From Tricharina praecox (lineage: Eukaryota): a DNA stretch of 64,000 nt. Below the pieces are notes generated by a model. The model searched no databases. It saw only the letters and a list, made by a program, of their open reading frames with translations, and was not told the DNA's origin. Position numbers and translations under genes: made by a program. The stretch is from contig NW_026250410.1 of assembly GCF_024521635.1 (NCBI RefSeq), positions 124,001 to 188,000 on the forward strand. The letters run 5' to 3'. Below, one piece after another: positions 5,797 to 60,494 of the stretch (within the stretch, counting starts at the first letter, position 1; each line of letters begins with the position of its first letter).

Positions 5797-6580
5797 GATC
5801 GAGTGCAGACCGCAATTGATAAGAAGCCGATGTCATCCTCTCGCACAGCGGCCAGAGCAACAACATATGGCCAATGGCGCATGCATGCCTCGCCTGCATG
5901 CATGGCCGGAGGAAAGACCTTTGCTCTGAAAGGAAGAAGACCTCCGCGTATAACGTGGGGGAGATAGTAAACCACGTTATGCGTGTATAACTTGGGGCGG
6001 TAGTAGACCAAGTTACACCTTCTTTGGTTTTTTTGTTTCATCATCACGAAACCGTCTGCAGCCCGGTTTCGGAGATTCTTGGGCCTTGGCCATGCATGCG
6101 CGCGGCATGTCTCTCACACATGTGACGTGCATGGCCAGGAGGAAAGACCTTTGCCCTCTCACAGCAAAGGAAGAAAACCTCCGCGTATAACCTGAGGGGG
6201 TAGTAGACCAAGCTATACGCGTATAACTTGGGGGGTGGTAAACCAAGTTATACTTTCTTGGTTTTTTTCTTCCTCGTCAACACGAAACCGTCTGTCACCC
6301 AGTCTCGGAGAGGCCATCCAACGGGAGCAAGTCGGCTCTCACCCGACTTGGACTCCCGGAGGAAGGGGGAAAGAACTTTGCCGGCAGCGGAAGAGAAAAC
6401 CCCGTCCTTGGACCTTTTCTACTCAGCCTCGAGGGTTAGATCCGTCTATTGTCGCTGCAACCTGTCTACTTTGTAGACAGGTTGCACGGATCCCTCAGTT
6501 CCTCGCTGCTACGGCTGAGCAGGATAGCTCTGTAAGGTTATCCTGGAAGTAACAAGTGGGGGGGAAAGAACGACGTACCT
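5797..6580 (-). repeat. Hairpin-array element, copy 1 (candidate structured ncRNA or non-autonomous mobile element)
   Basis: Reverse complement is near-identical to 28533-29308 and 13394-14141 and contains more than 10 inverted-repeat stems. No credible ORF. Confidence 0.85.
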
Positions 6581-6949
6581 GGAAGTTTGATCTCGAGATC
6601 AGGTGGAAGGAAGGAAGGGAGGGAGTAAGGAAGGAAGGAATGAATGAAGGCGAACGGTCGACGAAGAAAGGAAGCTGTGATGGTTGTAAAGAGAAGGAGA
6701 GAAGGAGGAGCAGAAGGGGGGTTTTGTAGGTGATTTAGGAGTTGCCGGGTTCCAAGCTGGTTTTCGCCGCCGCCAGAGGACTAGACCCCACCAAGACTTA
6801 CTCATCCGGTGAATTGAGCAAGCAAACGTGACGACCTCCTAGCCGGAGACGGGTTGATTACCTCGCGCGCCGAAGGAGTCCCCGCCCGGAGTAGAAGAAG
6901 AAGCAAGAAACATAACTACCAATCCTCCTATCGATCTCTGTATATTCGA

Positions 6950-7161
6950 CAAATTCCCTGACACCCATTCCAAACCATCACGTGCTCCACTTCACGAACG
7001 AGTGTTTTCCCCTGATTTCGTGATGTTCCTCCCTCCAAGCAACAATCCAGCTACCTACCTAAGCTAGCCACCCACTCCGCAACAAGAAAAGGAAAAGCCG
7101 CAACCAGGGATTGAACCGCTGCGCAGCAAAAGAGCGTCCTCCCCAAGGCTGCTAGCCTTGT
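6950..7161 (-). repeat. tRNA-like/SINE-like repeat module (A-box-like, B-box-like, T-rich tract)
   Basis: Minus strand reads TAGCAGCCTTGG (7154-7143), then GGTTCAATCCC (7117-7107), then TTTTCCTTTTC. Homologous to 14623-14823 and 29314-29525. Confidence 0.6.
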
Positions 7162-7205
7162 CCCTAGGGTACAAGCAATGCGTTAATCACGCATTTAAAT
7201 GCACC
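7162..7205 (+). mobile_element. Solo terminal inverted repeat of the CCCTAGGGTACAAG family
   Basis: CCCTAGGGTACAAGCAATGCG matches the TIRs at 8421 and 10199. It truncates the adjacent tRNA-like module. No partner end found. Confidence 0.55.
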
Positions 7206-8418: not shown

Positions 8419-10201
8419 GTCCCTAGGGTACAAGGAATGCGGCAAGCCGCAATTAAGCAAATGCGAGCCTGCCTGTAAACTGGCTCCTGACACAAAATGC
8501 GGACCATTTTCTCTGGTAATTCAGGCTTCTGCTAGTAAATTGGCCTAAGCTGATTCAATAGGCGGTAGGTAGTAATTGCGGCCAGCTCACGAGGGTCAAA
8601 TTGGGCTCTTATACTTAATATGGCTGTCAACACTCAATGTGTCGATTGGACAGAAGCCTAATATGGCGATGAGGTGTAAACTGGCGGTTAGCAGTAAATG
8701 CAATGTCTCTCCACCACTCTCTTCGGGCATCCGTTAGTAAAAAGACACCTTACCGCTCATCAGGCTTCCGGCTCGAGTGATGAATAGGCTTCGATTTATA
8801 AATGGACCATTTTCTTCTTATTCGGCCGACCCCGCCATGCGTGCCCCCCGCCATGTCCCCCGCCATGCCCACAAATGTTGATGCCCACTACTAACCACAT
8901 CCGCGTCCTCCCGCCGACGGGTTCTCCATCACTACGTCATCCTCTCACCGGCACTCACGGCTCCTCCGTCACTTCCTTCTCCATCTCTTCCTCCTCCATC
9001 TCTTCCTCCTCTCGCCAACATCTCCTCCTTCACTTCCTCCCCTCGCTGACAGCTATTCCATCAATTCCTCATTTTGCCAATAGCTACTCCTCTCCTCCTT
9101 CTCGCTAACAGCTTCTCCCCATCACTTCCTCATCTCGCTTCACCTCTCGCTAACAGCTCCTTCATCACTTCCTCCTCTCGCCGAGCCCTCATCCGCCACT
9201 CTACCACACAGTATTTCCCTTCGTCGTCGATCACCCTCTGTCTCTGGTCTTCCACAGCAGGTACGTATTGCGTTCCTAGACCTAGCTCGCTGCGGATACC
9301 CCACTGTCATCGCCGGTACTAACAGACTGTCTATTTAGCACGCCGGTCATGTTGAATCTGTGCTAAGGTACCCGGGTGAAGACCGAAGAGCGGGAAGAGC
9401 GGTGGGAGGCGGGGAGATGCGGGTTTCGGTTTGCATAGGAGCGGAGGGGAGGATATATATGGGCTGAGCAGCAGTAGTTATCATACATAGAACCACAGCA
9501 ATTTCAAGCAGCAGTTCGCGCTCGTGTAATTGTTGAGGTTAGCCATATAAGCTCCTAAAAGCCATAACATCAACTCTACCCTTTTATAGCCGTATCAGTG
9601 ACAGCGCCCTTTTGGAACCCTTGTATGAAGAGCCCTTTTAGACTAAAGAGCCCTTTAATAGCCGGAATAGAGCCCTTTTAGAGCCCTTTGACTGTCATCC
9701 TCCCAGGCCGTAATAACGCGGGCCCATTTAGTTAATACGGCAGTGCCTATGGAGTATTCCCGGCGGGATGAGTGGGAAGACCAAAAGCTAACAGCCAGCG
9801 CAGGACAGCAAGAACAGCGACGAGGATGACTACAGCGCCGGCGACGGAAATGTGCTATCTGCCGAGACTGGCGGAGTGTGGTATCCATGGCGGGGAGAGT
9901 GCGGTATGCAGCGAGGCAACTGTAGGAAGGTATAGGAGGACAAGGCACATATGTATCTAGTACTATCATAGATTAATGCAACGCATTTGATAACACTGCA
10001 AATTACCTAAAAGAACGCATTATACACCAGCCCGTTTTGCGACACCGTGGACTCCATTTTTCGACACCGTGGACTCCATTTTGTGACATCGGGAAAACAG
10101 ATTTTGCGACATCTGAAAACAGATTTTGCGACATTTTAGAATCACATTTTGCGGCATCAACGTATATCTCGGCGACAACGCATTCCTTGTACCCTAGGGT
10201 G
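8419..10201 (+). mobile_element. Non-autonomous DNA transposon A (~1.8 kb)
   Basis: Perfect TIR CCCTAGGGTACAAGGAATGCG at 8421-8441 and its reverse complement at 10179-10199. Subterminal repeats: TTTTGCGACA-like x6 at 10035-10160 and AGAGCCCTTT at 9629-9690. Internal TATA (~8797) and intron-like GTACGT...TACTAAC...TAG (9261-9338). No transposase ORF. TA lies outside both ends, so superfamily (hAT vs Tc1/mariner) is unresolved. Confidence 0.75.
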
Positions 10202-10721: not shown

Positions 10722-12223
10722 CCTATGGTACAGGCGATGGGACAGGGGCCGTTTTGTTGAATGGGCACGCATTTAAATCGGCTCCCAATATTCTTTCTGG
10801 CTGTAATTAGCCTGTATTTGGCTGTGAAAAGGCTGTGAAAAGGCTGTATCCAGGCTTGAAAGATTAAAAGGGCTGTAAGGTATAAAGGGCGATACCTAGT
10901 ACATACGGCTAGAAAAGGGCACAGTTGCTCAACTGGCGTTGATAATAAATGGCTTTTAGGAGTTCATATGGCTGACATTGAACAATTATACGAGTGCAAT
11001 CTGCTGCTTCAGATTTCTGTGATTCTAGCTACTGCTGCTCGCCCAATATATATCCTCCCGTCTGCGCCCAAGCAAACCGAACCCTGCTTGTCCCCGCTTG
11101 TCCCCCGCTCGCCGGCTTCCACCCCGTCATCTTAGCACACATACAACATGACCGGCGTGCTCAATCGACTGTCTGCTAGTATCCGCAGCGAGTCAGGCCT
11201 GATACTGAAGGATGGCATAGGAGGAGAGGACGTACCGGTGACAAGAGGGCCAGGTGCTGTTAGACAGCAAAGGAGGACGAGACAGAGTGCTATTAGCGGC
11301 GATGACAGTGGGGTATCCGCAGCGAAGCAGGTGTGTAGGATAGCATAGGAGCATGATGCGTACCTGCTGTAAGAAGACCAGACACTGTCAAAGAGCGAGT
11401 GGCGGCGAGGGGGAATACTGTGGGGCGGACTGATGGGGGAGCTGTAGCCTGTCAGCGAGAAGAGGAAGTGATGCAGGAGCTGTGGGTGCGAGCAGGGTGA
11501 AGTGATGGAATAGCTGTCAGGGAGATGAAGTGATGGAGGAGTTGTAGGCGAGGGGAGGAAGTGACGGAAGAGCTGTTCGCGGGAGGAAGCGAATGTGATT
11601 AGTATGTAGTGGACTACAACGTTGGTGGGCATGGCGGGGGGCATGGCGGGGTCGGCCGAATAAGGAGAAAATGCTCCATTTATAAATCGAAGCCCATTTT
11701 CACTCAGGCCGGAAGCCTAATGAGCGGGAAAGTTGTCTTTTTATCAACGGATGCCCGAAGAGAGTGGTGGAGACATTGTATTTGCTGCCAATAGCCAATT
11801 TACACCTCAACGCCAAATCTGACCTCTGTCTATTCTTCACATTGAGTATAGACAGCCAAATTAGGCGAAAGAGCCCAGTTTGAGTATTGTAAACTGGCCG
11901 CAATTACTACCAACAGCCCATTGACTCGGCTCCGCCCAATATGACCATCGCAAACTGGCCCGCAATTACTACCAACCGCCTATTGACTAGGCTTCGCCCA
12001 ATTTGAGTATTGTAAACTGGCCGTAATTACTACTAACCCCCCATTGACTCGGCTCCGCCCAAATAAACATGGCAACTTGTGCCCTATGAGGAAAAAAGGC
12101 CAATTTACTGGCAGAAGCCTGAATTACCAGTGCAAACGAGCTGCAATTTGTGCTAATAGCCAGTTTATATGCAGACTCGCATTCAACCAAAGGGGCCTCG
12201 TCCCATTCCCTGTACCCTTAGGG
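10722..12223 (-). mobile_element. Non-autonomous DNA transposon B, diverged relative of A in opposite orientation
   Basis: Ends CCTATGGTACAGGCGATGGGAC and reverse-complement CCTAAGGGTACAGGGAATGGGAC. The interior 10900-11900 aligns as reverse complement to 8590-9600. Confidence 0.7.
11879..12062. repeat. Three ~60-bp tandem repeats inside element B
   Basis: aaactggcc(c)gcaattactaccaac..cc.attgact.ggct.cgcccaa occurs three times. Confidence 0.8.
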
Positions 12224-12369
12224 GTACTGCCACCTCACTCCACCGCTTCCCCACTACCAACTTCCGCATTCTCCGGCATTCACCCCGGCACCTTAGCACA
12301 CATTCAATAATACTCTCCCCGCCGCTGATACCACATTTTCTTCGCCGCGGATAGTACACTCCACCCATC

Positions 12370-12437: not shown

Positions 12438-12562
12438 GTTGAGGGCAGGGGAAGTAGGGCGCCTCATCGGACTGGTCGGTACCGGGGCTTTCACCTCGAC
12501 TGGCCAGGGCGGGCAGGAAAAATAGTGCGTTGGTTCGCCATAGTCTAGATCGCAGTCGACGC

Positions 12563-12946: not shown

Positions 12947-14141
12947 TATATGGAGAGTAGCAAAGTTGCTCGCCACCATTTCACGTTTGTCTCTATTCCG
13001 CGCTGTGAATCGTATTCAATAATACTCACTCGCACTTCGAGTGACTCCGGGTGATGCCAAGCACATGCCGACACCTTGGAATGAAGCGGTTGTTTGCTGA
13101 AAAGCTAGCTTTGGAGTCACGGCTAGTGCGCTAGCAGTGGTTGTTTGGAATCTTACCCACTTCACTTATAAAATCTCACCTTTCCTCCCAACTTTTCCTC
13201 CCTCTCTCCTCCACACATCCAGAACCAACCGCTATCCAGAACTAATCGCTATCCAGAACAATCATTACCCACACATTAACCTCTTCTTCTTCTTTCCCGT
13301 ACGAGACTACCAGGTATGTACTTGTTGATTCATGCTACTGACTTATGATTAGTTTTCACGGTCCGATATCGGCCCCGAGGCCTACTCTTTGAGGTACGTG
13401 CTGTCTCCCCCCACCCTCTTTTTACTTCCAGGATAACCTTACAGAGCTATCCTGCTCAGCCGTAGCAGCGAGGAACTGAGGGATCCGTGCAACCTGTCTA
13501 CAAAGTAGACGGTTGCAGCGACAATAGACGGATCCAACCCTCGAGGCTGAGTAGAAAAGGTCCAAGGACGGGGTTTTCTCTTCTGCTGCCGGCAAAGTTC
13601 TTTCCCCCTTCCTCCGGGAGTCCAAGTCGGGTGAGAGCCGACTTGCTCCCGTTGGATGGCCTCTCCGAAACCGGGTGACAGACGGTTTCGTGTTGACGAG
13701 GAAGAAAAATCAAAGAAAGTATAACTTGGTTTACTACCCCCCAAGTTATATATAGAGGTTTTCTTCCTTTGCTGTGAGAGAGCAAAGGTCTTTCCTCCTG
13801 GCCATGCATGTCACATGTGTGAGAGACATGCCGCGAGCATGCATGGCCAAGGCCCAAGAATCTCCGAAACCGGGCTGCAGACGGTTTCGTGATGATGAAA
13901 CAAAAAAACCAAAGAAGGTATAACTTGGTATACTACCGCTCCAAGTTATACGTGTATAACGTGGTTTACTATCCCGCCATGTTATACACGGAGGTCTTCT
14001 TCCTTTCACAGCAAAGGTCTTTCCTCCGGCCATGCATGCAGTGAGGCATGCATGCGCCATTGGCCATATGTTGTTGCTCTGGCCGCTGTGCGAGAGGATG
14101 ACATCGGCTTCTTAATCGATTGCGGTCTGCACCCTCGATCC
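12947..14141 (+). repeat. Hairpin-array element, copy 2 (leader 12947-13431, array 13432-14141)
   Basis: Near-identical to 28061-29308. TATAAAA at 13167-13173. One GTATAAC hairpin is deleted relative to copies 1 and 3. Confidence 0.85.
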
Positions 14142-14622: not shown

Positions 14623-14823
14623 CCTTAGCTGTTACAAGGGTAGCAACCTTGGGGAGGACGCTCTTTTGCTGCGTTTCAAGCCTGGGTTGCTGCTTTACTT
14701 TTTCTTTTGCTGGAGTGCCTGGCTAGCTGGACTGTTGCTTCGAGGGGAGGATCATCACGGAATCATGGGAAAACACTCGTCGTGAAGCACGTGAGGGTTT
14801 GGAACGGGTGTTATGCAATTAGT
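14623..14823 (+). repeat. tRNA-like/SINE-like repeat module
   Basis: tgttacaagggtagcaaccttggggaggacgctcttttgctgcgtttcaagcc... homologous to 29314-29525. Confidence 0.7.
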
Positions 14824-15192: not shown

Positions 15193-15795
15193 TCATGCCG
15201 GCTTAGGCGCACCGCCGCCGAGACCACCAGGGCCTCCAGGAGCGCTACCGCCGGGAGCAGTGGGGGTTCCACCGGGTGGCTTGGGAGTGCCAGTAGTCCC
15301 ACCAGGGCCACCGGAGCCACTAGAACCACCTCCAAGACTTCCCATTCCGCCACCCGGCGGCTTTCCACCACCGTTGCCGCCTCCATGACCGCCTCCATGG
15401 TCGTTGCCACCTCCATGGCCGTTGCCGCCTCCGTGGCCGTGGTCGTTGCCGCCTCCATGGCCGTGGCCATGATCACCATGACCACCATGACCATGACCAC
15501 CATGACCACCATGACCACCATGACCACCATGATCATCATAACCACCGTGGCCGCCGCTGCCGCCACCACCACCACCACCTCCGGGCGGCTTACCGCCACC
15601 CATACCGCCGCCCATACCGCCGCCCATACTGCCGCCTGGCGGCGATGAGGTTCCGCCCGCGCCTGCGCCTCCAGCAGCGCCCCCGGCACCGGGAAGACCG
15701 GTAGGAATAGTATCCGCTGGTGGAGATATGCCCTGGGCTACTGGGGCTGCCAGGGTGGTTGCGAGGAGGGTGGAGAGGAGGAGGAGGAAGTGCAT
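15193..15795 (-). CDS. Secreted Gly/His-rich protein (200 aa)
   Basis: ATG in aaaATG context. Signal-peptide-like MHFLLLLSTLLATTLA-AP. Central GGH/GH repeats. TATAAA ~170 bp upstream. Single exon. Confidence 0.85.
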   Translation of the reverse strand: MHFLLLLSTLLATTLAAPVAQGISPPADTIPTGLPGAGGAAGGAGAGGTSSPPGGSMGGGMGGGMGGGKPPGGGGGGGGSGGHGGYDDHGGHGGHGGHGGHGHGGHGDHGHGHGGGNDHGHGGGNGHGGGNDHGGGHGGGNGGGKPPGGGMGSLGGGSSGSGGPGGTTGTPKPPGGTPTAPGGSAPGGPGGLGGGAPKPA

Positions 15796-15868
15796 TTTGT
15801 CTTAGTATGGAATATTGTTGGTTGAAACTTGAAGGAGTGGGGCCGGCCTGTGGGGAATGAATGGTGTG

Positions 15869-27390: not shown

Positions 27391-27956
27391 CTGCAATTTG
27401 ATATGTTCTAGGTCGCTGAAACGCCAGATGACTCCGTTTCCAGATTGGCCGGCCCATTCGTAGACTGGCGAGACCGGCGAGACTTCATGGCAAGTCAGCT
27501 CCATGAGAATATGCGAGTTGACTAGAAAGGCATCGAGGAGGAAGAAGAATAACGACAACCAATTTCGACAGGTCCGCTGATGAGTTGTGTAGAGTATTCA
27601 GCTCGGCGCTGGCCCGCTACTTCCACGCTGTTCATGTGGTTGTTGTAATCATCTTCCGTTCTGTGTCTCCAAGACCCGGCGGACAGCAGCAGCATTGGTA
27701 CTGGTTGTTCGCGGCTTGCGGCTTGTGCCGTAGCTTGAGTGTGGCCTCGTTCCGCGGATGAACTGTTGTAAGAAAGCGGACAATATTGCTATCCTCCCAT
27801 GGTCCTCAGGAGCTTCAAGGCAACGACAAAGCTGAAAGATCGCCGAACGAGTGCAGTGGGTGTCAACTCTGTGGCCTGCTGAAGACCGCCAATCGAGTGG
27901 ATGCGAGATGTGTATAGCCAGTCGAGGATGTAGCCGGCGTCACAGATGTAGGCAGC

Positions 27957-29308
27957 GGCGCCACATCGGGCTGGGTAGTATCGGGGTCTCAACCCTCGGC
28001 CGACCAGAGTGGGCAGGAAAGGAGTGCGACGGTTCGCCATAATCTACACTGCAGTCGACGCATATGGAGAGTAGCAAAGGTGCTCGCCACCATCTCACGT
28101 TTGTCTCTGTTCCACGTTGTGGGATCGTATTCAATAATACTCACTCGCACTTCGAGTGACTCCGGGTGATGCCAAGCACATGCCGACACCTTGGAATGAA
28201 GCGGTTGTTTGCTGAAAAGCTAGCGTTGGAGTCGCGGCTAGTGCGCTAGCAGTGGTTGTTTGGAATCTTACCCACTTCACTTATAAAATCTCACCTTTCC
28301 TCCCAACTCTTCCTCCCTCTCCTCCACACATCCAGAACCAACCGCTATCCAGAACCAACCGCTATCCAGAACCAATCGCTATCCAGAACCAATCGCTATT
28401 CAGAACAATCAGTACCCATACATTAACCTTTTCCTCTTCTTTCCCGTGCGAGACCACCTACTTGTTGATTCATGCTACTGACTTATGATTAGTTTTCACG
28501 GTCTGATATCGGCCCCGAGGCCTACTCTTTGAGGTACGTGCTCTCTCCCCCCGCCCTCTTTTTACTTCCAGGATAACCTTACAGAGCTATCCTGCTCAGC
28601 CGTAGCAGCGAGGAACTGAGGGATCCGTGCAACCTGTCTACAAAGTAGACAGGTTGCAGCGACAATAGACGGATCCAACCCTCGAGGCTGAGTAGAAAAG
28701 GTCCAAGGACGGGGTTTTCTCTTCTGCTGCCGGCAAAGTTCTTTCCCCCTTCCTCCGGGAGTCCAAGTCGGGTGAGAGCCGACTTGCTCCCGTTGGATGG
28801 CCTCTCCGAGACTGGGTGACAGACGGTTTCGTGTTGACGAGGAAGAAAAAAACCAAGAAAGTATAACTTGGTTTACCACCCCCCAAGTTATACGCGTATA
28901 GCTTGGTCTACTACCCCCTCAGGTTATACGCGGAGGTTTTCTTCCTTTGCTGTGAGAGGGCAAAGGTCTTTCCTCCTGGCCATGCACGTCACATGTGTGA
29001 GAGACATGCCACGAGCATGCATGGCCAAGGCCCAAGAATCTCCGAAACCGGGCTGCAGACGGTTTCGTGATGATGAAACAAAAAAACCAAAGAAGGTGTA
29101 ACTTGGTCTACTACCGCCCCAAGTTATACACGCATAACGTGGTTTACTACCCCCCCACGTTATATGCGGAGGTCTTCTTCCTTTCAGAGCAAAGGTCTTT
29201 CCTCCGGCCATGCATTCAGTTGAGGCATGCATGCGCCATTGGCCATATGTTTTTGCTCTGGCCGCTGTGCGAGATGATGATATTGGCTTCTTAATCGACT
29301 GCGGTCTG
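27957..29308 (+). repeat. Hairpin-array element, copy 3 (array 28572-29308)
   Basis: 27957-28061 matches 12457-12562 and 28061-29308 matches 12947-14130. The 17-bp tandem TCCAGAACCAAYCGCTA is expanded at 28331-28408. Confidence 0.85.
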
Positions 29309-29313
29309 AAGGT

Positions 29314-29525
29314 CCTGAGCTGTTACAAGGATAGCAACCTTGGGGAGGACGCTCTTTTGCTGCGGTTCAAACTCGAGTTGCTACTTTCCTTTTCATTTCT
29401 TTCTTCTGGAATGGCTAACTGGCTAGGTAGATTGTTGCTTGGAGGGAGAATCATCACGAAATCATGGGAAAACACTCGTTCGTTGAGCACGTGATGTTTT
29501 TGAATGGGTGTCATGGAATTAATTC
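29314..29525 (+). repeat. tRNA-like/SINE-like repeat module directly downstream of hairpin array
   Basis: TAGCAACCTTGG at 29332, GGTTCAAACTC at 29364, then a T-rich tract. Confidence 0.65.
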
Positions 29526-29587
29526 AAAAGATCCTCACTACAACACACTCGCATCCTAGTTTCGCCAAAACGCCAAGCGCATGTAGT

Positions 29588-30196
29588 TATGGTGCCTGCG
29601 GTTTTGGAGGCCCATCTTTTCGCGATGCCTATTTCAAGCCAGCTAGCAGCCGACAGCAGATATGAAACCCAGGGTGTGGAAAAGTCACAGGTTAGTTATG
29701 TACCTTCCTATGGATTTGGATTCCTGGACATATGTTGGTGTGAAGTTCTTTTACAAGAAGAAGCCCTAGGTTTTGTATGCAAATCAAGCTCCAGTGCACC
29801 AAACTCTCACGAGTGGCGACTAATTTTCACTCTAAAGTCGAGTGTAGTGTAGTGGTCACACGTACTCGGTCGGAGTATGAACTTAAAGTTCGGAGAACTT
29901 TTCGGACCCGGAACTCAGCTGTTCAACTACCATCCGAAATACAGGCCGCCATATAGAGAATTCACCAGCAGATAGCTTGTCCCAGGATATGAATAGTCAA
30001 CCACCGGCAGTGATTGATTCTCATAGTGGAAAGGAACAGGTGTAGGTATACTAGTCACCGTGGAGTAGTGAAGTTGCATGTTTGAGAGTTGTCAGGTGAT
30101 CATTTTTGTTCTTGTGGTGGGGTCGGCTGTTGCCATGTAAACTTTCTGGGTGAAGAGCTAAAACCCACTGTGCCTTTCTAGACCGCAGGCACCATA
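29588..30196. mobile_element. MITE D, copy 1
   Basis: TIRs TATGGTGCCTGCGG ... CCGCAGGCACCATA. Reverse-complement homolog at 43662-44091. This copy has ~200 bp extra at ~29820-30025. Confidence 0.8.
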
Positions 30197-30558
30197 TATG
30201 TTCTTGGTGCGATTTCCTATGTTTTGGTAGGCGGCGGCGGTGTGAAGGGTGGTTCTAAACTCTTGCCAAGTTATCATTCCTCTAGATGACTATTTCTATT
30301 GAAAGGAAATGTAGTTCATTGCATACCGGGGACGGGCGAATGCTGTTGCTATCAAGATTTAGAACCTTTGCAAGAAAGTGGGTGGAATCACTCGACATCA
30401 CTCACCCCACTAGGGGATTGCAGGAACGGCCCTTCAAAAGTCTACCTTTAACCACCTTCTACTTCTCCTCCTACTTCATCCTACCAACCACTCGACACCA
30501 TAGAAACAGCATCCTACATCCCGAGTCTCCCATCACCACCACCACCACCACCATCAAA

Positions 30559-31107
30559 ATGTCCACCCACCCATCCAATCCGCCCCACCCGCCCAACCCG
30601 CCCATCAACGAGGACCCCCAGGTTATCGACGAAAAGGTGTTCATAGCTCTCCTGGAGCAGCAGATCCTCCGGCAGTTGCACGAACACGAGGAGCTCGTTC
30701 AGTTACACTCGGCCCGCGCCCCCTCCCCGCACGACGAGCCTGCATTCTCCCTGCACCGACACCACCACCAGCAGCTCCTATCGCAGCAGCAAGCGGCTCT
30801 CGACCGGTACCTCTCGCGAGACCTGATCGAATACATTCCGGCCTCCGTCCTCGTCGCCGAGCAGGCAGCGCTCGCTCGCCAAGTCCAGGAGCTGGAGCAA
30901 ACGCGCGTCTATGAGCTTACCGCGGCCGCTAACGAAAGGACCTGCTGGGTAAGGGTGTGCGCTACCCAGGCCTTCGCGAGAAAGGTCCGCCGGTGCGTCG
31001 CGGCCGCGGTCTTGGCTTGCGGCGTGGCGATTTTTGTACGTGACTTTGGGTGGAGGGGGCTGGCGATCGTGGTTTTTGCTGCGTTGGCGGTGAGGTTTGG
31101 GGCTTAG
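30559..31107 (+). CDS. Orphan protein with helical core and C-terminal hydrophobic hairpin (182 aa), paralog 1
   Basis: ATG in accatcaaaATGtcc context, shared with the paralog at 43121. LDRYLSRDLIEYIPASV aligns to FDRFLGEDVAAYTPAAV. Confidence 0.7.
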   Translation: MSTHPSNPPHPPNPPINEDPQVIDEKVFIALLEQQILRQLHEHEELVQLHSARAPSPHDEPAFSLHRHHHQQLLSQQQAALDRYLSRDLIEYIPASVLVAEQAALARQVQELEQTRVYELTAAANERTCWVRVCATQAFARKVRRCVAAAVLACGVAIFVRDFGWRGLAIVVFAALAVRFGA

Positions 31108-42518: not shown

Positions 42519-43121
42519 CTACAAGAGTCTAAAGTGCACCAACAGAGTAAAGAAGCCCACAGCCGCCAGGCCATGGAGCGCAAAGTACGCCACAAGCGTG
42601 ACTCCTCCGCAGACCTTGTTCCTGAAGTCCTTCTGGGCTTGCACGCTTCTCTCGCGCACGCTTCCCTCGCCGGCGCTCACTTTCTTAACTCTATCAGCAG
42701 CCCTCTCCGCAGCAAGCGCCTTCTCCAGCTGCTCCCTTGCCTGCATCACAGCGGCGGGAGTGTAAGCGGCGACATCTTCGCCAAGGAAGCGGTCGAAGAC
42801 CTGCTGCTCGTACTTGTAGAGGCGCTGGCGGCGGAGACGAACGTGGCGCTCGAGAAGTGCCTTGCCGGTAGGCAATGACTCCACCAGCTCCGTTACCTCG
42901 CGGTCGAGAGCCCGCTTCTTCTGGATCAGGTGGTGGAAGTCTTGCACTAGCTGGATTGAGCGCTGCTCCAGCTCTGCTACAGCCGCTGGGGTCGCCGGCT
43001 TGTCAGTGGTCTGGGTTGCGACGGCGGGCGGATCGACAGCCTGCGTATCCGAGTTGGAAGGCGGGTTGGGCGGGTTGAACTGCTTGGAGGTGTCGGACAT
43101 CCTGGAAGCGGTGTCGGACAT
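42519..43121 (-). CDS. Orphan coiled-coil protein with C-terminal hydrophobic segment (200 aa), paralog 2
   Basis: accatcaagATGtcc start. NPPNPP motif. Lies in the inverted duplicate of 29588-31630. Confidence 0.7.
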   Translation of the reverse strand: MSDTASRMSDTSKQFNPPNPPSNSDTQAVDPPAVATQTTDKPATPAAVAELEQRSIQLVQDFHHLIQKKRALDREVTELVESLPTGKALLERHVRLRRQRLYKYEQQVFDRFLGEDVAAYTPAAVMQAREQLEKALAAERAADRVKKVSAGEGSVRERSVQAQKDFRNKVCGGVTLVAYFALHGLAAVGFFTLLVHFRLL

Positions 43122-43661
43122 CTTGATGGTGGTGCGACCGGTGGCTGGAGACTCGTGTGTTAGGATGTCGTTTCGTTTCGTTTCGGTAGTGTTGAATGAT
43201 TGGCTGGCAGGATGGTAGAGGAGTAGAACCAAAAGCTGGTTAAAATCTCAGTCGACCTCAGCTTTTGAAGGGTTCGTTCTTGAAATGCGCTAGCGGGGCG
43301 AGTGATCACGAATGATTCCACTCACCCTCTCGCAAAGATTCTAAATCTTGATGGTAACCGCATGCTCCCATCTCGACATGCAGTAAACTCTCCCAGTCAA
43401 TGGCGACAAGTTCCCTGGAGGTATAGTATCCTGACAAGAGTTTAGAGCATGTAGCTTTCACACTGCCGGCAGTGCCAGTTGCGAAGGAATCTTCGAAGCA
43501 ATTCTCATGAGATTTGAGTGCTTCATCAAACCTCAATCCCCTTCCACGAGTAATTTCCAGTGTGTTTGAAACAGTTATCGGTGAAGAAAGTAAGAAATGT
43601 TATGATGTAAGAGATAGAGAGCTACATACTTCTTACTTGGTATGAAAGTAAAGTACACATA

Positions 43662-44091
43662 TATGGTGCCTGCGGCCTAGAAGGGCACAGTGTTTTTTTT
43701 AGCTCTCCACGCGGAAAGTTTACATGACTTTACATGGAAACAGTCGGCCCCACCAAAAAGATCAAAAAAGATCACCTAACAACTCTCGAACCTACAACTT
43801 CACTACTCGGCGATGACTAGTATACCACACCCGTTCCTTTCCACTCGCCACTCGTGAGAGTGTGGTGCGCCGCAGCCTGATTTCCCTACAAAACCCAGTG
43901 TTTCCTCTTGTCAAAGATCTCTACACCCACATCACATTGGTCTAGGAATCCAAATCCATACATAGGAAGGCACATAGCCTGTGACTTTCCCCCACCATGG
44001 GTTTCACATCTGCTGCTGGCTGCTGCCGGCTGCTAGCTGGCTTGAAAATAGAACCGCAAAAAGATGGGCCTCCAAAAGCGCAGGCACCATA
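43662..44091. mobile_element. MITE D, copy 2 (inverted relative to copy 1)
   Basis: TATGGTGCCTGCG ... CGCAGGCACCATA termini. Interior aligns to the reverse complement of 29588-30196. Confidence 0.8.
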
Positions 44092-56128: not shown

Positions 56129-58249
56129 TCGAAGACAAGACGCATCTTCGAACTCTTTTATTTTTGTGTTTTTTTTTGATGACGGCCAGCTTTGTATAAT
56201 ATCAGGTTGCCTGCCCAGTTTCTACTTTCTTCCTGCTGCTTCACTGCTTCACTGCTTGCTTGCTTTTCTTGCCACACGTAATTTTTTGGAGTTTTTTTGA
56301 TCCCTTATGTCTGGTACCTATTCGTTCCCATAGAGAATTACCTACCTCCTGCGCCTGATCTGATTTGATCTGATCTGCGCAAGCCTAATGGATGTGGATG
56401 ACTACCGACATGGGGATGGAATCGAGGGCTGGGACCGAGTGACCAAAAGCGCGGTATCAAAAGATATGTAGCTTTTCCCAGACTTCACATGATGAGTGTC
56501 GAATCCGCCCGACAAACTCTGGCATATGTAGACCGACTGACGCAGCGCAAATCTGACCTGCCCCAGACCCCGTATCAGTTCAGTACATAAGAACATACTA
56601 GAAGTACATAGAAACATCCCAAATCCCACTTCCATCCATCCATCCATCCATCCACAAATCCTTCAACTGGGTAACCTCATATAACCCCAGTCGCATATAA
56701 AAAGGGCGCATACGCGTACCTACTATCCACACGAACATCCACTGTAATCCACTCTAAATTATCTGGGGAGGATGATCTTCGGTTATTCCCGAGGCTGTAT
56801 GTGCATGGGGTACCTATATAGTACTTACCGGTGGTTGATCTCGCGTTGTCGGTAGAGTAGAGTACATGGACCGAGGCTTATCCAAACTCCAACTCCAACT
56901 GGTACGTTTCGGATTGTGAGACGGGGGGGCTTTCAGATAAACAACGTCCAGCTTCCAAGCTTGAAGTCGCCACCCCACCCCACCCTTCCGACGGATCTGG
57001 GTAGGTATTTGTGTAAGGCTTCAGGTACAGTTAAGATCACCACGTGTTTCCTTTGAAGTTTGGTAGCTTGAGTATTTACACATACAGCCAATACAATCTG
57101 TCAACGTAACAAGTAACCAACCACGTTTTCCAAATTCCCTTTCCTACGGTATTCATGTAAAATCTCGCCTTGAATTGAATTGAGTGTTCACCGCAATCTA
57201 CGGCTCGTCCGATATCGCAGCAGACGGATGTCACTGCCGACGAGCCGGAGACGGAGGTGGGACGGAGACGGTGGTTCGCGATTTATGACGACTGGTTGAT
57301 AGGTTGATGCTGCGGTGAGTGGTGTTGTTGCAGAGCATGCATGCACGCACAGGTACCGTCCGTACCGCAAGACACACAGAGTCGCTATGATGGTTCTCCC
57401 GGTAAAGAACCCCGGCCTACCCAGCTAGCTGTAATACTCTCTTACATGGCCGGAGTTTCGGCCAGGCCAGACTGTGTTCACCCGCCCGCCCGAGTGGGCG
57501 GTATGCCGATGTGGAAGCCGATCGCAGCCCCGTTTCGTTTCGTTTCGAACAAATGCAGATGCAGATGCAGAGGTGGAAGTGGAGTTGCCTGCATCACATC
57601 ACATCAAGCCCTAGAATCTTCAGTGAGGAGTCACTGAGCTGTAGCATCGCCGATTGGGTTCCTACTGGTGGACGCATACCACCGAGGCTTGTTTCTCTGT
57701 TTCGAAGATATTTTTCCGTCATCGTCTCCGTCTCCGTTCGCGTCTTCGAGGGATTTTCAGCGTGCTGGGGTCATGCTGGCGGTAGGTATGCCGGTACTTC
57801 CAAGTTTCTTTGGTGCTCTGACTCCTGAGCATCGATACGGGTAGCTGGGTAGGCATAACAGTCAATGGTAGCGGTTGGATGTAGAGTACCCGTGACGCCA
57901 CAGCCAGGCATCTCGCCTCTGCAGCCTTACAAACAAAACAAAACCCCCAGCTACGATGATCGCTACACGGTTAATCTTCCCGTAACAGTGCGCAAGGATG
58001 TTGTTTCCGAGTCCCTGGCCGTGGAGATGTTGATGCACCAGAGGAGAAGAACAACACTCGAGTTCGGTATATAAGTCCCAGAGTCCCGCCCAGACCCAAC
58101 ATCACTTGCATCATCAGCATCAACAGCAGCTCCCTTCCAGTCTTTCCATTCCGAACCGCAGGCCGTGTTTCCCTCCTTCTTTCTTTCTCTTCTTCTTCTT
58201 CACACAAAAGCCAGCCTTTTATCATACTTTCATTCCCACCATCTTGAAG

Positions 58250-59377
58250 ATGTACGCCTCCTCGACATTCGTCGCTCTCCTCTTCGCGGCACTTGCGGTT
58301 GCCGCGCCGATGCCGAAGCCGCAGCATATCCCTAGCAGTGCTGCTGATGGGTCGATGACCATCTTGCCAATGCCGACTGGTACCGGGGCTCCCAGCGGTA
58401 TGCCTACGGGCCTACCGGAAGTGGGACTTCCGAGTGGTTTGCCTACTGGTATACCGACAGGCTTCCCCGAGGGCAGCCTGCTCAGCGGCATGCCAACCGG
58501 CCTGCCGACTGGCGGCTTCTCTGATATGCCGACTGGTCTGCCTACCGGCGGGTTTCCCGGTATGCCGACTGGCGGCTTCACTGGTATGCCGACTGGCCTC
58601 CCTACTGGCAGTTTCCCCGGCATGCCGACTGGTCTCCCCACTGGCGGGTTTCCCGGCATGCCAACCGGTGGCTTCCCCGGCATGCCAACTGGCCTTCCTA
58701 CCGGTCTTCCCACTGGCGGTTTCCCCGGCATGCCAGCCGGCAGCTTGTCCGGCCAGCACGCCGTCCAACACGCCGGCCAGCACCACGGCGGCTTCCCCGG
58801 CGGCTTTCCGGGCGGCTTCCCCGGTTCGCCCACCGGCGGGCTACCCTCCGGCTTCCCTAGCTTCCCCTCGGGCATCTTCCCGCCCAGCGGCGGCGCGTAC
58901 CCCACCGGCATCCCAGCAGGAATCTTCCCTCCCAGCGGCGCATACCCTACCGGCATCCCAGCGGGAATCTTCCCACCCAGCGGCGGCGCTTACCCAACCG
59001 GCGGTGCCGGCGACTACACGGACATTCCCGCCGCTCCGTCCGGACTAGTCGCCCCCACCGCCGGCTCAGACGCCCCCGTATCGCCGCAGGCATCCACCTA
59101 CGCCGGCGAGCCCGCGGTCCCCACCGCGACCGGCACCGCAGACGCCCCGGCTGCCACGACCACGACGGCCCTCGGCGGCCTCCCTGATCTTAGCAGCTTG
59201 TTGAGCGGGCTGTTGGGTGGCACGGGCGGCACGGGAGATCTGAGTAGTCTGCTGAGCGGGCTGCTGGGCGGTACGGGCGGCACGGGAGGCACGGGAGATC
59301 TGAGTAGTCTGCTCAGTGGGCTGCTCGGGGGTGTGACTGGTGAGGCGGCGGGTGAGGTTGTTGGTGGGTCGGAGTAG
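58250..59377 (+). CDS. Secreted Gly/Pro/Thr-rich repeat protein (375 aa)
   Basis: Signal peptide MYASSTFVALLFAALAVA-AP. Repeats of GMPTG(LPTG)GFP, YPTGIPAGIFPPSG and DLSSLLSGLLGG x3. TATATAAG at ~58068. Confidence 0.88.
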   Translation: MYASSTFVALLFAALAVAAPMPKPQHIPSSAADGSMTILPMPTGTGAPSGMPTGLPEVGLPSGLPTGIPTGFPEGSLLSGMPTGLPTGGFSDMPTGLPTGGFPGMPTGGFTGMPTGLPTGSFPGMPTGLPTGGFPGMPTGGFPGMPTGLPTGLPTGGFPGMPAGSLSGQHAVQHAGQHHGGFPGGFPGGFPGSPTGGLPSGFPSFPSGIFPPSGGAYPTGIPAGIFPPSGAYPTGIPAGIFPPSGGAYPTGGAGDYTDIPAAPSGLVAPTAGSDAPVSPQASTYAGEPAVPTATGTADAPAATTTTALGGLPDLSSLLSGLLGGTGGTGDLSSLLSGLLGGTGGTGGTGDLSSLLSGLLGGVTGEAAGEVVGGSE

Positions 59378-60050
59378 AACAGGTGGGCGGAGTGTATATA
59401 AGGGTGGATTTCCGGCTGCGCCGGAGGGGATTTGGGATTTGGGGTTTGGGGTTTGGGATTTGGGGTTTGGGGGTGGGGGTGGTTGTACTGTAGTGTACGG
59501 GAAAGAAATGCACATATAACATACTTCATACACACATACACATATACACACATGCATACATGCGAATAACAGCGTGATCTGGGGATGGTCACTTCTGGAT
59601 ATCCCCAGGAAAGTCTTCCCGACTTTCCTGTCCTAAGTGGGCCGACACCTAGGTGCTCGGGATCCCTATTAGTTAGGGCCGAGTGACGAGACGTTGCACC
59701 GGACCTCGCTCTAGCCTAGCCCAGTCAGTGCTTCAGATCTAAACTAGAGCTGCACACGATATCATTCGTAGTGTGAGTCCGAGTGATCGTGATCCCACCT
59801 CACAACGGGCAAGTTCGGGGTCGATTGTCTGTGGGCCATAACATGTGCTTGGTGGCTAGCCCACTACCACCACTACCCCTCCTCCTCCTCCTCCTCCTCC
59901 TCCTCCTCCTCCACCTCTACCTTCCCCCCTCTCCACCTCCTCCTCCTCCTCCACCTCTACCTTCCCCCCTCTCCACCTCCTCCTCCACCACCAACATCAA
60001 CATCACCCTCCCCTCCCCCGACCATCCACCCCAACACCCCTCGAGTCACG

Positions 60051-60494
60051 ATGCCGACCACCAATCCCCCTCCTCTCACGCCCGCCGAGCGCCAAGCCCT
60101 CGAGGAGTTTATGCTACCCCGCCAGCACTCCCTCCGCCACTCATCACCATACACCCCGCTGGACGACGCCCACGCCTCCTCACACGTCTCCCCGCAGGTC
60201 GCCACCTACCTCCAAGGCTGCCCTTCCTCTTCCCACCCCTCCTCGTCCCACCCCCCCTCCTCCCGCACCTCCTCTCTGGAACAGCGTGGCCAGCCCGGAG
60301 AATCTAAATGGTGGGAACACAACCCGTCTATCCCCGAGCATACGGCGCGCCGGGCGCTGAAGCTGGTCAAGATCGCGCTGTATGCGGTCGGTGCCGCGAT
60401 CGTGGTGCATGAGCTCGGCGTGGCTGGGGGGGTGGTCGCACTGGTCACCGCTGCTGCCGTGGTGGTGGGGGGGAGGGGAGGGGGGGTGTGGTAG
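60051..60494 (+). CDS. Orphan protein with C-terminal hydrophobic hairpin (147 aa), possible paralog 3
   Basis: N-terminal NPPP. C-terminus ARRALKLVKIALYAVGAAIVVHELGVAGGVVALV parallels ARKVRRCVAAAVLACGVAIFVRDFGWRGLAIVV of 30559-31107. Confidence 0.6.
   Translation: MPTTNPPPLTPAERQALEEFMLPRQHSLRHSSPYTPLDDAHASSHVSPQVATYLQGCPSSSHPSSSHPPSSRTSSLEQRGQPGESKWWEHNPSIPEHTARRALKLVKIALYAVGAAIVVHELGVAGGVVALVTAAAVVVGGRGGGVW

Follow-up and report, generated by a model that had tools for sequence, protein, structure and literature searches.

The window analysed here, a stretch of 64,000 nucleotides from the cup fungus Tricharina praecox (positions 124,001 to 188,000 of contig NW_026250410.1), carries three copies of a repeat (Table 1). 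An array of hairpins in the third copy had been singled out in a preliminary description of this DNA, and these hairpins are part of a modular non-coding element of about 700–720 nt that is present in more than 30 copies in this ascomycete genome. Among named relatives, those nearest to a mitochondrial ribosomal protein of this genome come from Sphaerosporella and Wilcoxina, both Pyronemataceae. A search of the genome (38.4 Mb, 104 contigs) yielded at least 44 matches to the core of the element, with 40 of 48 candidates scored, and 33 copies on 12 contigs made up the set analysed below. Pairwise identity between copies, computed over aligned module columns, ranges from 0.81 to 0.99 with a median of 0.885. 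The copies are clustered on contigs C28, C2 and C83, where they lie in both orientations between ordinary host genes; neighbours of the clusters include a GMC oxidoreductase, a ZIP transporter, a malic enzyme and a subtilase. Some copies are truncated or interrupted, one unit has been lost in seven copies, and the flanks of the element taper as mosaics. No conserved ORF was found in the element, and indels of every length occur among the copies.

Table 1. Copies of the element in the window and features of copy 3, from 5' to 3' on the strand given
Feature	Positions	Strand	Remarks
Copy 1	5823..6856	-	putative promoter of type B (6616-6856); intron-like segment 6543-6578
Copy 2	12950..14110	+	putative promoter of type A; extra upstream predicted intron with canonical branch point, 13314-13352
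Copy 3	28060..29308	+	
Putative promoter module, type A (copy 3)	28060..28335	+	TATA-like box 28281-28288; 14 aligned copies; of 30 matches in the genome, most lie immediately upstream of an element
Intron-like GT-AG segment	28534..28571	+	38 nt, at the start of the conserved core; GT in 30/31 and AG in 30/31 copies
5' domain	28592..28695	+	long interrupted stem, five helices; from folds; 30 G·U vs 15 A·C events
U-rich internal loop 1 (ENE-like)	28711..28748	+	G-C lower stem, UUUUCU / UUCUUU loop, upper stem; from consensus fold; 4 events in 384 site-copies
Linker domain	28749..28845	+	hairpins 28757-28791 and 28807-28831, enclosed by a putative closing helix (28749-28755 paired with 28839-28845)
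A-rich tract 1	28846..28860	+	ends AAGAA; candidate third strand for loop 1
Hairpins 1 and 2	28861..28929	+	11-12 bp, C-rich loops; number differs between copies
U-rich internal loop 2 (ENE-like)	28932..28976	+	UUUUCUU / UCUUU loop between a GGAGG/CCUCC stem and an upper stem whose length varies; 5 events in 312 site-copies
Two linker hairpins	28978..29067	+	28978-29026 and 29043-29067; from folds
A-rich tract 2	29078..29094	+	ends AAAGAA (29089-29094); candidate third strand for loop 2; last seven columns invariant
Hairpins 3 and 4	29096..29165	+	pair 8 is U-A, G-C or C-G across the family
U-rich internal loop 3	29168..29205	+	more degenerate; no encoded tract downstream; 12 events in 372 site-copies
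Last linker hairpin and 3'-terminal hairpin	29206..29287	+	rich in G·U variants

The covariance models of Rfam 15 gave four matches in 27800–29800, all at chance level, and none at E ≤ 0.5 in eight further loci. Telomerase RNA, H/ACA snoRNA and self-cleaving ribozymes were weighed on the motifs typical of them and set aside, with no support from Rfam. No relatives were found among at least 119 metagenome stretches listed, in viral contigs (86 + 5 stretches) or in prokaryotic genomes (29 stretches), all of them collections poor in fungal genomes, and the best alignments in these scans were at chance level and no longer than 44 nt. Individual copies have been altered in their own ways. At locus L034 (contig C31, 1650–3580) the element is split at A-rich tract 1 by about 2 kb of unrelated DNA and its 5' part is gone; a comparison gave no support for this insert as a member of a small-ORF family. 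At locus L013 (contig C2) a near-perfect palindromic, MITE-like insertion of about 90 nt lies in the leader, about 110–210 nt upstream of the core. Short repeated modules also flank the elements (29321–29520, 14630–14820 and 6952–7161; 27956–28050 and 12458–12547), and the summed contig depth of the module at 27956–28050 is high in one soil run.

The window also holds a separate non-autonomous DNA transposon at 8421–10199 (+), with a second copy at about 10950–12227 (−) and a lone end at 7162. This transposon is 1.36–1.78 kb long and has 21-bp terminal inverted repeats starting CCCTAGGG. When 40 of 142 candidates were scored, at least 25 long matches turned up in the genome; target duplications of 3–4 bp were seen in some of the 10 copies checked. 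It contains an internal TATA-like box (8796), a branch-point-plus-AG array (8991–9160) and a predicted intron (9261–9338), and no ORF is common to its copies. Two small proteins of about 190 aa, both with a hydrophobic C-terminus and no Pfam family, are encoded at 30550–31107 (+) and 42519–43121 (−); they are 28% identical, and the DNA upstream of them is inverted-repeated (29588–30439 and 43264–44091). A third similar small ORF, its likeness judged by eye, lies near 59793–60494 (+). Finally, signal-peptide-like repeat proteins, Gly/His- and Pro/Gly/Thr-rich and without a Pfam match, are encoded at 15193–15801 (−) and 58034–59377 (+).

The copies are preceded by a promoter-like module of one of two types, each type having a TATA-like box and being represented by 14 aligned copies, and most genome matches of these modules sit upstream of an element. 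The modules are putative promoters. A pyrimidine-rich leader connects the promoter module to the GT-AG segment; in type A copies the leader contains a 17-bp tandem repeat, with 4.5 units at 28330–28406 and 2.5 units at 13217–13259. The GT-AG segment is 33–51 nt long across copies and begins with GTACGT in 19 of them and with GTAAGT in eight. Other consensus introns found nearby are longer (15 of 16 candidates are at least 56 nt long), and the segment lacks a canonical branch point. From these signals we infer that the element may be transcribed and spliced. In assembled contigs from four runs, one of them taken to be RNA on a guess, the GT-AG segment showed no joint; such contigs are blind to starts, ends and strand, and they are given no weight here.

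Downstream of this segment the core consists of a 5' stem domain followed by three units, in each of which G-C-rich helices enclose a U-rich internal loop. The + strand folds at lower energy than the − strand in 22 of 29 copies. For the 3'-terminal hairpin the values are −14.5 kcal/mol on the + strand and −8.0 kcal/mol on the − strand, neither of them significant against shuffles. Of 28 copies, most have the 7-mer complementarity that would close the linker domain; one of its pairs is U·G in seven copies and broken in five, the partner of the 7-mer being the best match chosen by script; the helix is absent from one consensus fold. The inner linker hairpin has been cleanly deleted in four copies. 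The heptaloop GUGAGAG occurs on three different hairpins (28770–28780, 28952–28958 and 28997–29003), with related loops on the last linker hairpin, and is possibly a protein site or a tertiary contact. Kissing between the C-rich hairpin loops and a loop of the 5' domain was considered by eye and rejected, the partner varying without covariation.

The preliminary description had argued from a handful of compensatory and G·U-type substitutions that structure is selected in the orientation of the upstream TATA box and splice signals. A direct sequence check of the window located every motif it quoted. The double compensatory change it reported is real: the pair in question is G-C in hairpin 4 and U-A in the other hairpins (the four of copy 3 start at 28861, 28896, 29096 and 29132). 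The same pair is G·U in the last hairpin of copy 2 (13954), as had been claimed, and the two-wobble variant of the CGAAACCG hairpin lies at 28807 and is found in copy 1 as well. Copies 1 and 3 are 98% identical, so that changes common to both represent one event and not two, and little can be proved by five selected examples when the three copies they come from are almost identical. A counter-example was also missing from that account, namely C29133 opposite A29164 in hairpin 4 of copies 3 and 1, which is of the A·C type on the + strand. Copy 2 does have one hairpin instead of two at 13719–13751, but this is a common state of the family: among 26 instances of the first unit, a single long hairpin is found in 12, a short and a long one in another 12, and two long ones in two (window copies 1 and 3). 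Since the single-hairpin state is common across the family, the difference is no less likely to be due to a gain in copies 1 and 3 than to a loss in copy 2.

To read strand preference from substitutions, we compared changes that turn a Watson-Crick pair into G·U with those that turn it into A·C. A Watson-Crick pair in an inverted repeat presents mirror-image contexts on the two strands, so strand-symmetric mutation, including that at methylated CpG, should yield both kinds equally often. Equality, which would have spoken against the earlier view, was not what the larger alignment gave: when changes at 149 consensus Watson-Crick pairs were counted by parsimony on a tree relating the 33 copies, 133 G·U stood against 83 A·C changes on the + strand (p = 0.0008), and loops, leaders/tails and promoters were without such a bias. 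Only in this larger set does the pattern go beyond chance. The orientation proposed for the selected structure is thereby supported. Helices for this count were defined by hand on copy 3. Pairs were left out if seen in fewer than 10 copies or if their commonest state was not Watson-Crick or fell below 55%, as were the fragments L034–L037, partial second copies inside other loci and short UUCC-loop hairpins.

A pair-level sign-flip test of the G·U excess gave p = 0.002; 58 pairs lean to G·U and 33 to A·C, and of 31 copies 19 lean to G·U and nine to A·C. The modules of the hairpin range (28806..29167) contribute 65 G·U against 35 A·C. Without CpG-containing pairs the count is 110 vs 69, for helix-internal pairs 93 vs 58, and in raw alignment cells 154 vs 76. 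A-U pairs show 58 vs 30 (p = 0.004), while G-C pairs taken alone show 75 vs 53, which is not significant (p = 0.06). Shared changes number 25 vs 11 and singletons 108 vs 72; divided by contig strand, the singletons are 57 vs 45 in + copies (p = 0.28, not significant) and 51 vs 27 in − copies. Counting distinct column states, the most conservative approach and one that saturates, left 73 vs 56 (p = 0.16). The observed G·U share of 0.616 compares with shares of 0.499, 0.415 and 0.425 predicted from leaders/tails, loops and promoters, respectively (p ≤ 0.0006), these controls being computed on their own trees or themselves constrained. Gene conversion between copies makes the tree only approximate.

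Stems also accumulate few transversions, about 8 per 1000 site-copies as against 23–28 in controls. Double changes from one Watson-Crick pair to another are rare, with only eight among the 149 pairs in addition to the polymorphic hairpin pair 8, and one-sided changes do not count as covariation (PMC11234323). The effect is of moderate size, about 1.6:1. The strand it favours is the one that carries the TATA-like box and the GT-AG segment, and we regard selection on + strand structure as highly probable. As G·T is tolerated in single-stranded DNA too, the reading of the folded strand as RNA rests on the promoter and splice-like signals and not on the wobble count.

The best-conserved positions of the element are in U-rich loops 1 and 2. 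Events per 1000 site-copies amount to 33 in stems, 56 in unpaired loops and 62–64 in promoters, and to 10, 16 and 32 in U-rich loops 1, 2 and 3; loops 1 and 2 together have nine events where about 37 would be expected at promoter rates (p = 4 × 10^-8). Both strands of these two loops contain a C, and AAGA stands directly 5' of the hairpins in 54 of 57 units. When read as a triplex, the 3' strand of a loop would pair with AAAGA(A) and its 5' strand would lie parallel, C over G. For loop 2, the 3' strand matches the downstream tract over the full five pairs in all 23 three-unit copies and the upstream tract in 10 of the 23; for loop 1, a run of at least five pairs is found with the downstream tract in 26 of 32 copies and with the upstream tract in 17. 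The register in which each loop binds its upstream tract therefore fits worse and was rejected. Loop 3, with no downstream tract, drifts, and the tract before loop 1, with no upstream loop, is more variable.

The predicted triplexes are short (4–6 triples), and in no copy have the loop C and the tract G changed jointly. The putative 7-bp linker helix could place tract 1 at the foot of loop 1. The consensus folds contain both U-rich loops, with the competing upstream tract omitted from one alignment and covariation terms near zero, and in five single-sequence minimum-energy folds loop 1 formed in three and loop 2 in three.

On the strength of these sequence features, we see about an even chance that the copies form a lineage-restricted family of polymerase II ncRNA genes whose + strand transcript contains ENE-like triplexes. 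The family would have spread by copying of promoter and core, at the DNA level, into intergenic spaces. Its + strand transcript would be a chain of folded modules on which purifying selection is moderate, and a good many copies would be in partial decay. Loops 1 and 2 would each form a short U·A-U triple helix with the first encoded AAAGAA tract downstream of the loop, and one C·G-C triple would set the register of each, as in MALAT1. Such triplexes would stall 3'-to-5' decay and so give rise to stable RNAs ending near 28860 and 29094, and loop 3 would either be degenerate or take the poly(A) tail. In the least supported step, proteins would bind the repeated hairpins that lie between modules, and the RNA would be a long-lived scaffold or decoy. 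A fuller form of the proposal has MALAT1-type self-clamping triplexes in series, each with its own encoded A-rich tract and then a variable number of protein-binding hairpins, in more than 30 genes that are driven by two interchangeable promoters and produce a ladder of stable non-polyadenylated RNAs; we offer this tentatively, as something we rather doubt than believe.

The same structured + strand RNA might do without triplexes, its loops and tracts being kept for alternative Watson-Crick duplexes, as in a conformational switch, or for protein binding. The purine tract at 28839–28854 can indeed pair with the 5' strand of loop 2 or with either strand of loop 1, the A-to-G variant at 28840 is compatible with more than one of these pairings, and covariation between loop and tract is absent. 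The alternative duplexes differ, however, from copy to copy, and they leave unexplained why tract 2 and the 3' strand of loop 2 are nearly invariant and complementary, and we consider this explanation unlikely.

Alternatively, the copies may be those of a non-autonomous selfish element whose folded + strand, as RNA or ssDNA, serves as substrate for replication or mobilisation, so that copying is selected without any host function. The ENE-like loops would then shield the transcript of the element itself, as happens in plant retrotransposons; transposons of plants and fungi are known to carry ENEs (PMC7583470, PMC12501189), and this genome has another non-autonomous element with an internal promoter. 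The clustering of copies in both orientations between host genes, their mosaic flanks and their truncations and interruptions would also be in keeping with such an element. Against this, no terminal inverted or long direct repeats are common to the 1.25–1.45 kb flanks of 30 copies, as would be looked for in a TIR transposon or solo LTR (ends further out were examined for some copies only). No reverse transcriptase lies beside a copy among 140 matches listed, the nearest to a cluster being about 35 kb away, and no transposon family was recognised among 77 scanned ORFs of the 95 found in the cluster regions. The promoter and intron-like segment have been kept, unlike in retrocopies, and the presence of the G·U excess among singletons points to selection on resident copies. 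A selfish element of this kind seems improbable to us.

Least plausible, and already weakened, is an origin of the hairpins as neutral DNA palindromes homogenised by gene conversion and template switching, with the G·U excess due to strand-biased mutation (non-template deamination) and the double changes to quasi-palindrome repair: C>T does exceed G>A at a similar ratio in unpaired loops (20/482 vs 25/863), double changes are rare, the mixed states of the arms at hairpin pair 8 point to recombination and the singletons of + contig copies are not significant. Stems, however, have A>G and T>C at 58 vs 30, where loops have 14/915 vs 35/609 and leaders/tails 26/689 vs 42/1377, the shortage of transversions is confined to stems when set against controls, and palindrome repair cannot be the source of unpaired U-rich loops 1 and 2 that are better conserved than stems.

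We compared the element with RNAs that are stabilised by triple helices. An ENE is defined by an internal loop rich in U, with G-C pairs flanking it (PMC7583470, PMC13541005, PMC12501189). Loops 1 and 2 appear with this structure in the consensus folds, three-unit copies have three such motifs, and the conservation of loops 1 and 2 goes beyond what pairing explains. In MALAT1, a C-interrupted U-rich loop is combined with a downstream encoded A-rich tract that has a matching G (PMC7583470, PMC8457004, PMC6633196). The element resembles it in having a U-rich internal loop between short helices, a C interruption in both loop strands and the matching G in a downstream encoded A-rich tract. It differs from MALAT1, with its nine U·A-U triples and one C·G-C, in being fungal and having 4–6 predicted triples, and further in arranging two or three modules in series in an RNA of about 700 nt, with plain hairpins after the tracts and more than 30 paralogues. 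ARAGORN found no tRNA-like structure in 12 loci, hence no MALAT1-type RNase P module after the tract, where simple hairpins are found.

According to reviews, the plant and fungal ENEs described are transposon elements predicted to bind poly(A), while encoded-tract triplexes have been described for vertebrate MALAT1 and MEN-beta. The transposon ENEs (Tycowski, Shu and Steitz 2016; Evade ENE), as described in PMC7583470, PMC13541005 and PMC12501189, are like the element in having a U-rich loop flanked by G-C pairs, here too in a repeated fungal element. They are situated in LTRs or in transposase or retroelement mRNAs, whereas the copies examined have no LTR, terminal repeat or coding gene attached and lie in no such transcript. 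Double-domain ENEs stack two loops in one stem; the loops of the element are in separate stems and have their C matched by encoded tracts. The ENE of KSHV PAN RNA, a stability element of an abundant lncRNA with about five U·A-U triples and flanking G-C pairs, is comparable with the modules proposed here, but it is viral and single, has a pure-U loop and binds poly(A) (PMC7583470). By analogy, the element most likely works like an ENE-stabilised lncRNA that falls outside both the MALAT1-family and the transposon-ENE classes.

Sets of fungal structured RNA motifs (PMC5640933, PMC8216456) and Rfam 15 offer the parallel of fungal ncRNAs found by comparison. A word search of the accessible text of the two papers returned no triple-helix, repeat or multicopy motif. 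Our literature search, which covered papers available without subscription, found no description of the element.

If the proposal of ENE-like triplexes is true, two or three modules with encoded tracts, arranged one after another in a fungal RNA, would represent a new architecture. Its 33 natural variants, with module deletions, differing hairpin numbers and loop mutations, would provide a ready series for studying how short triplexes block decay. The triplex aside, the copies constitute a large undescribed family of structured RNAs or selfish elements on which selection for one strand can be measured.
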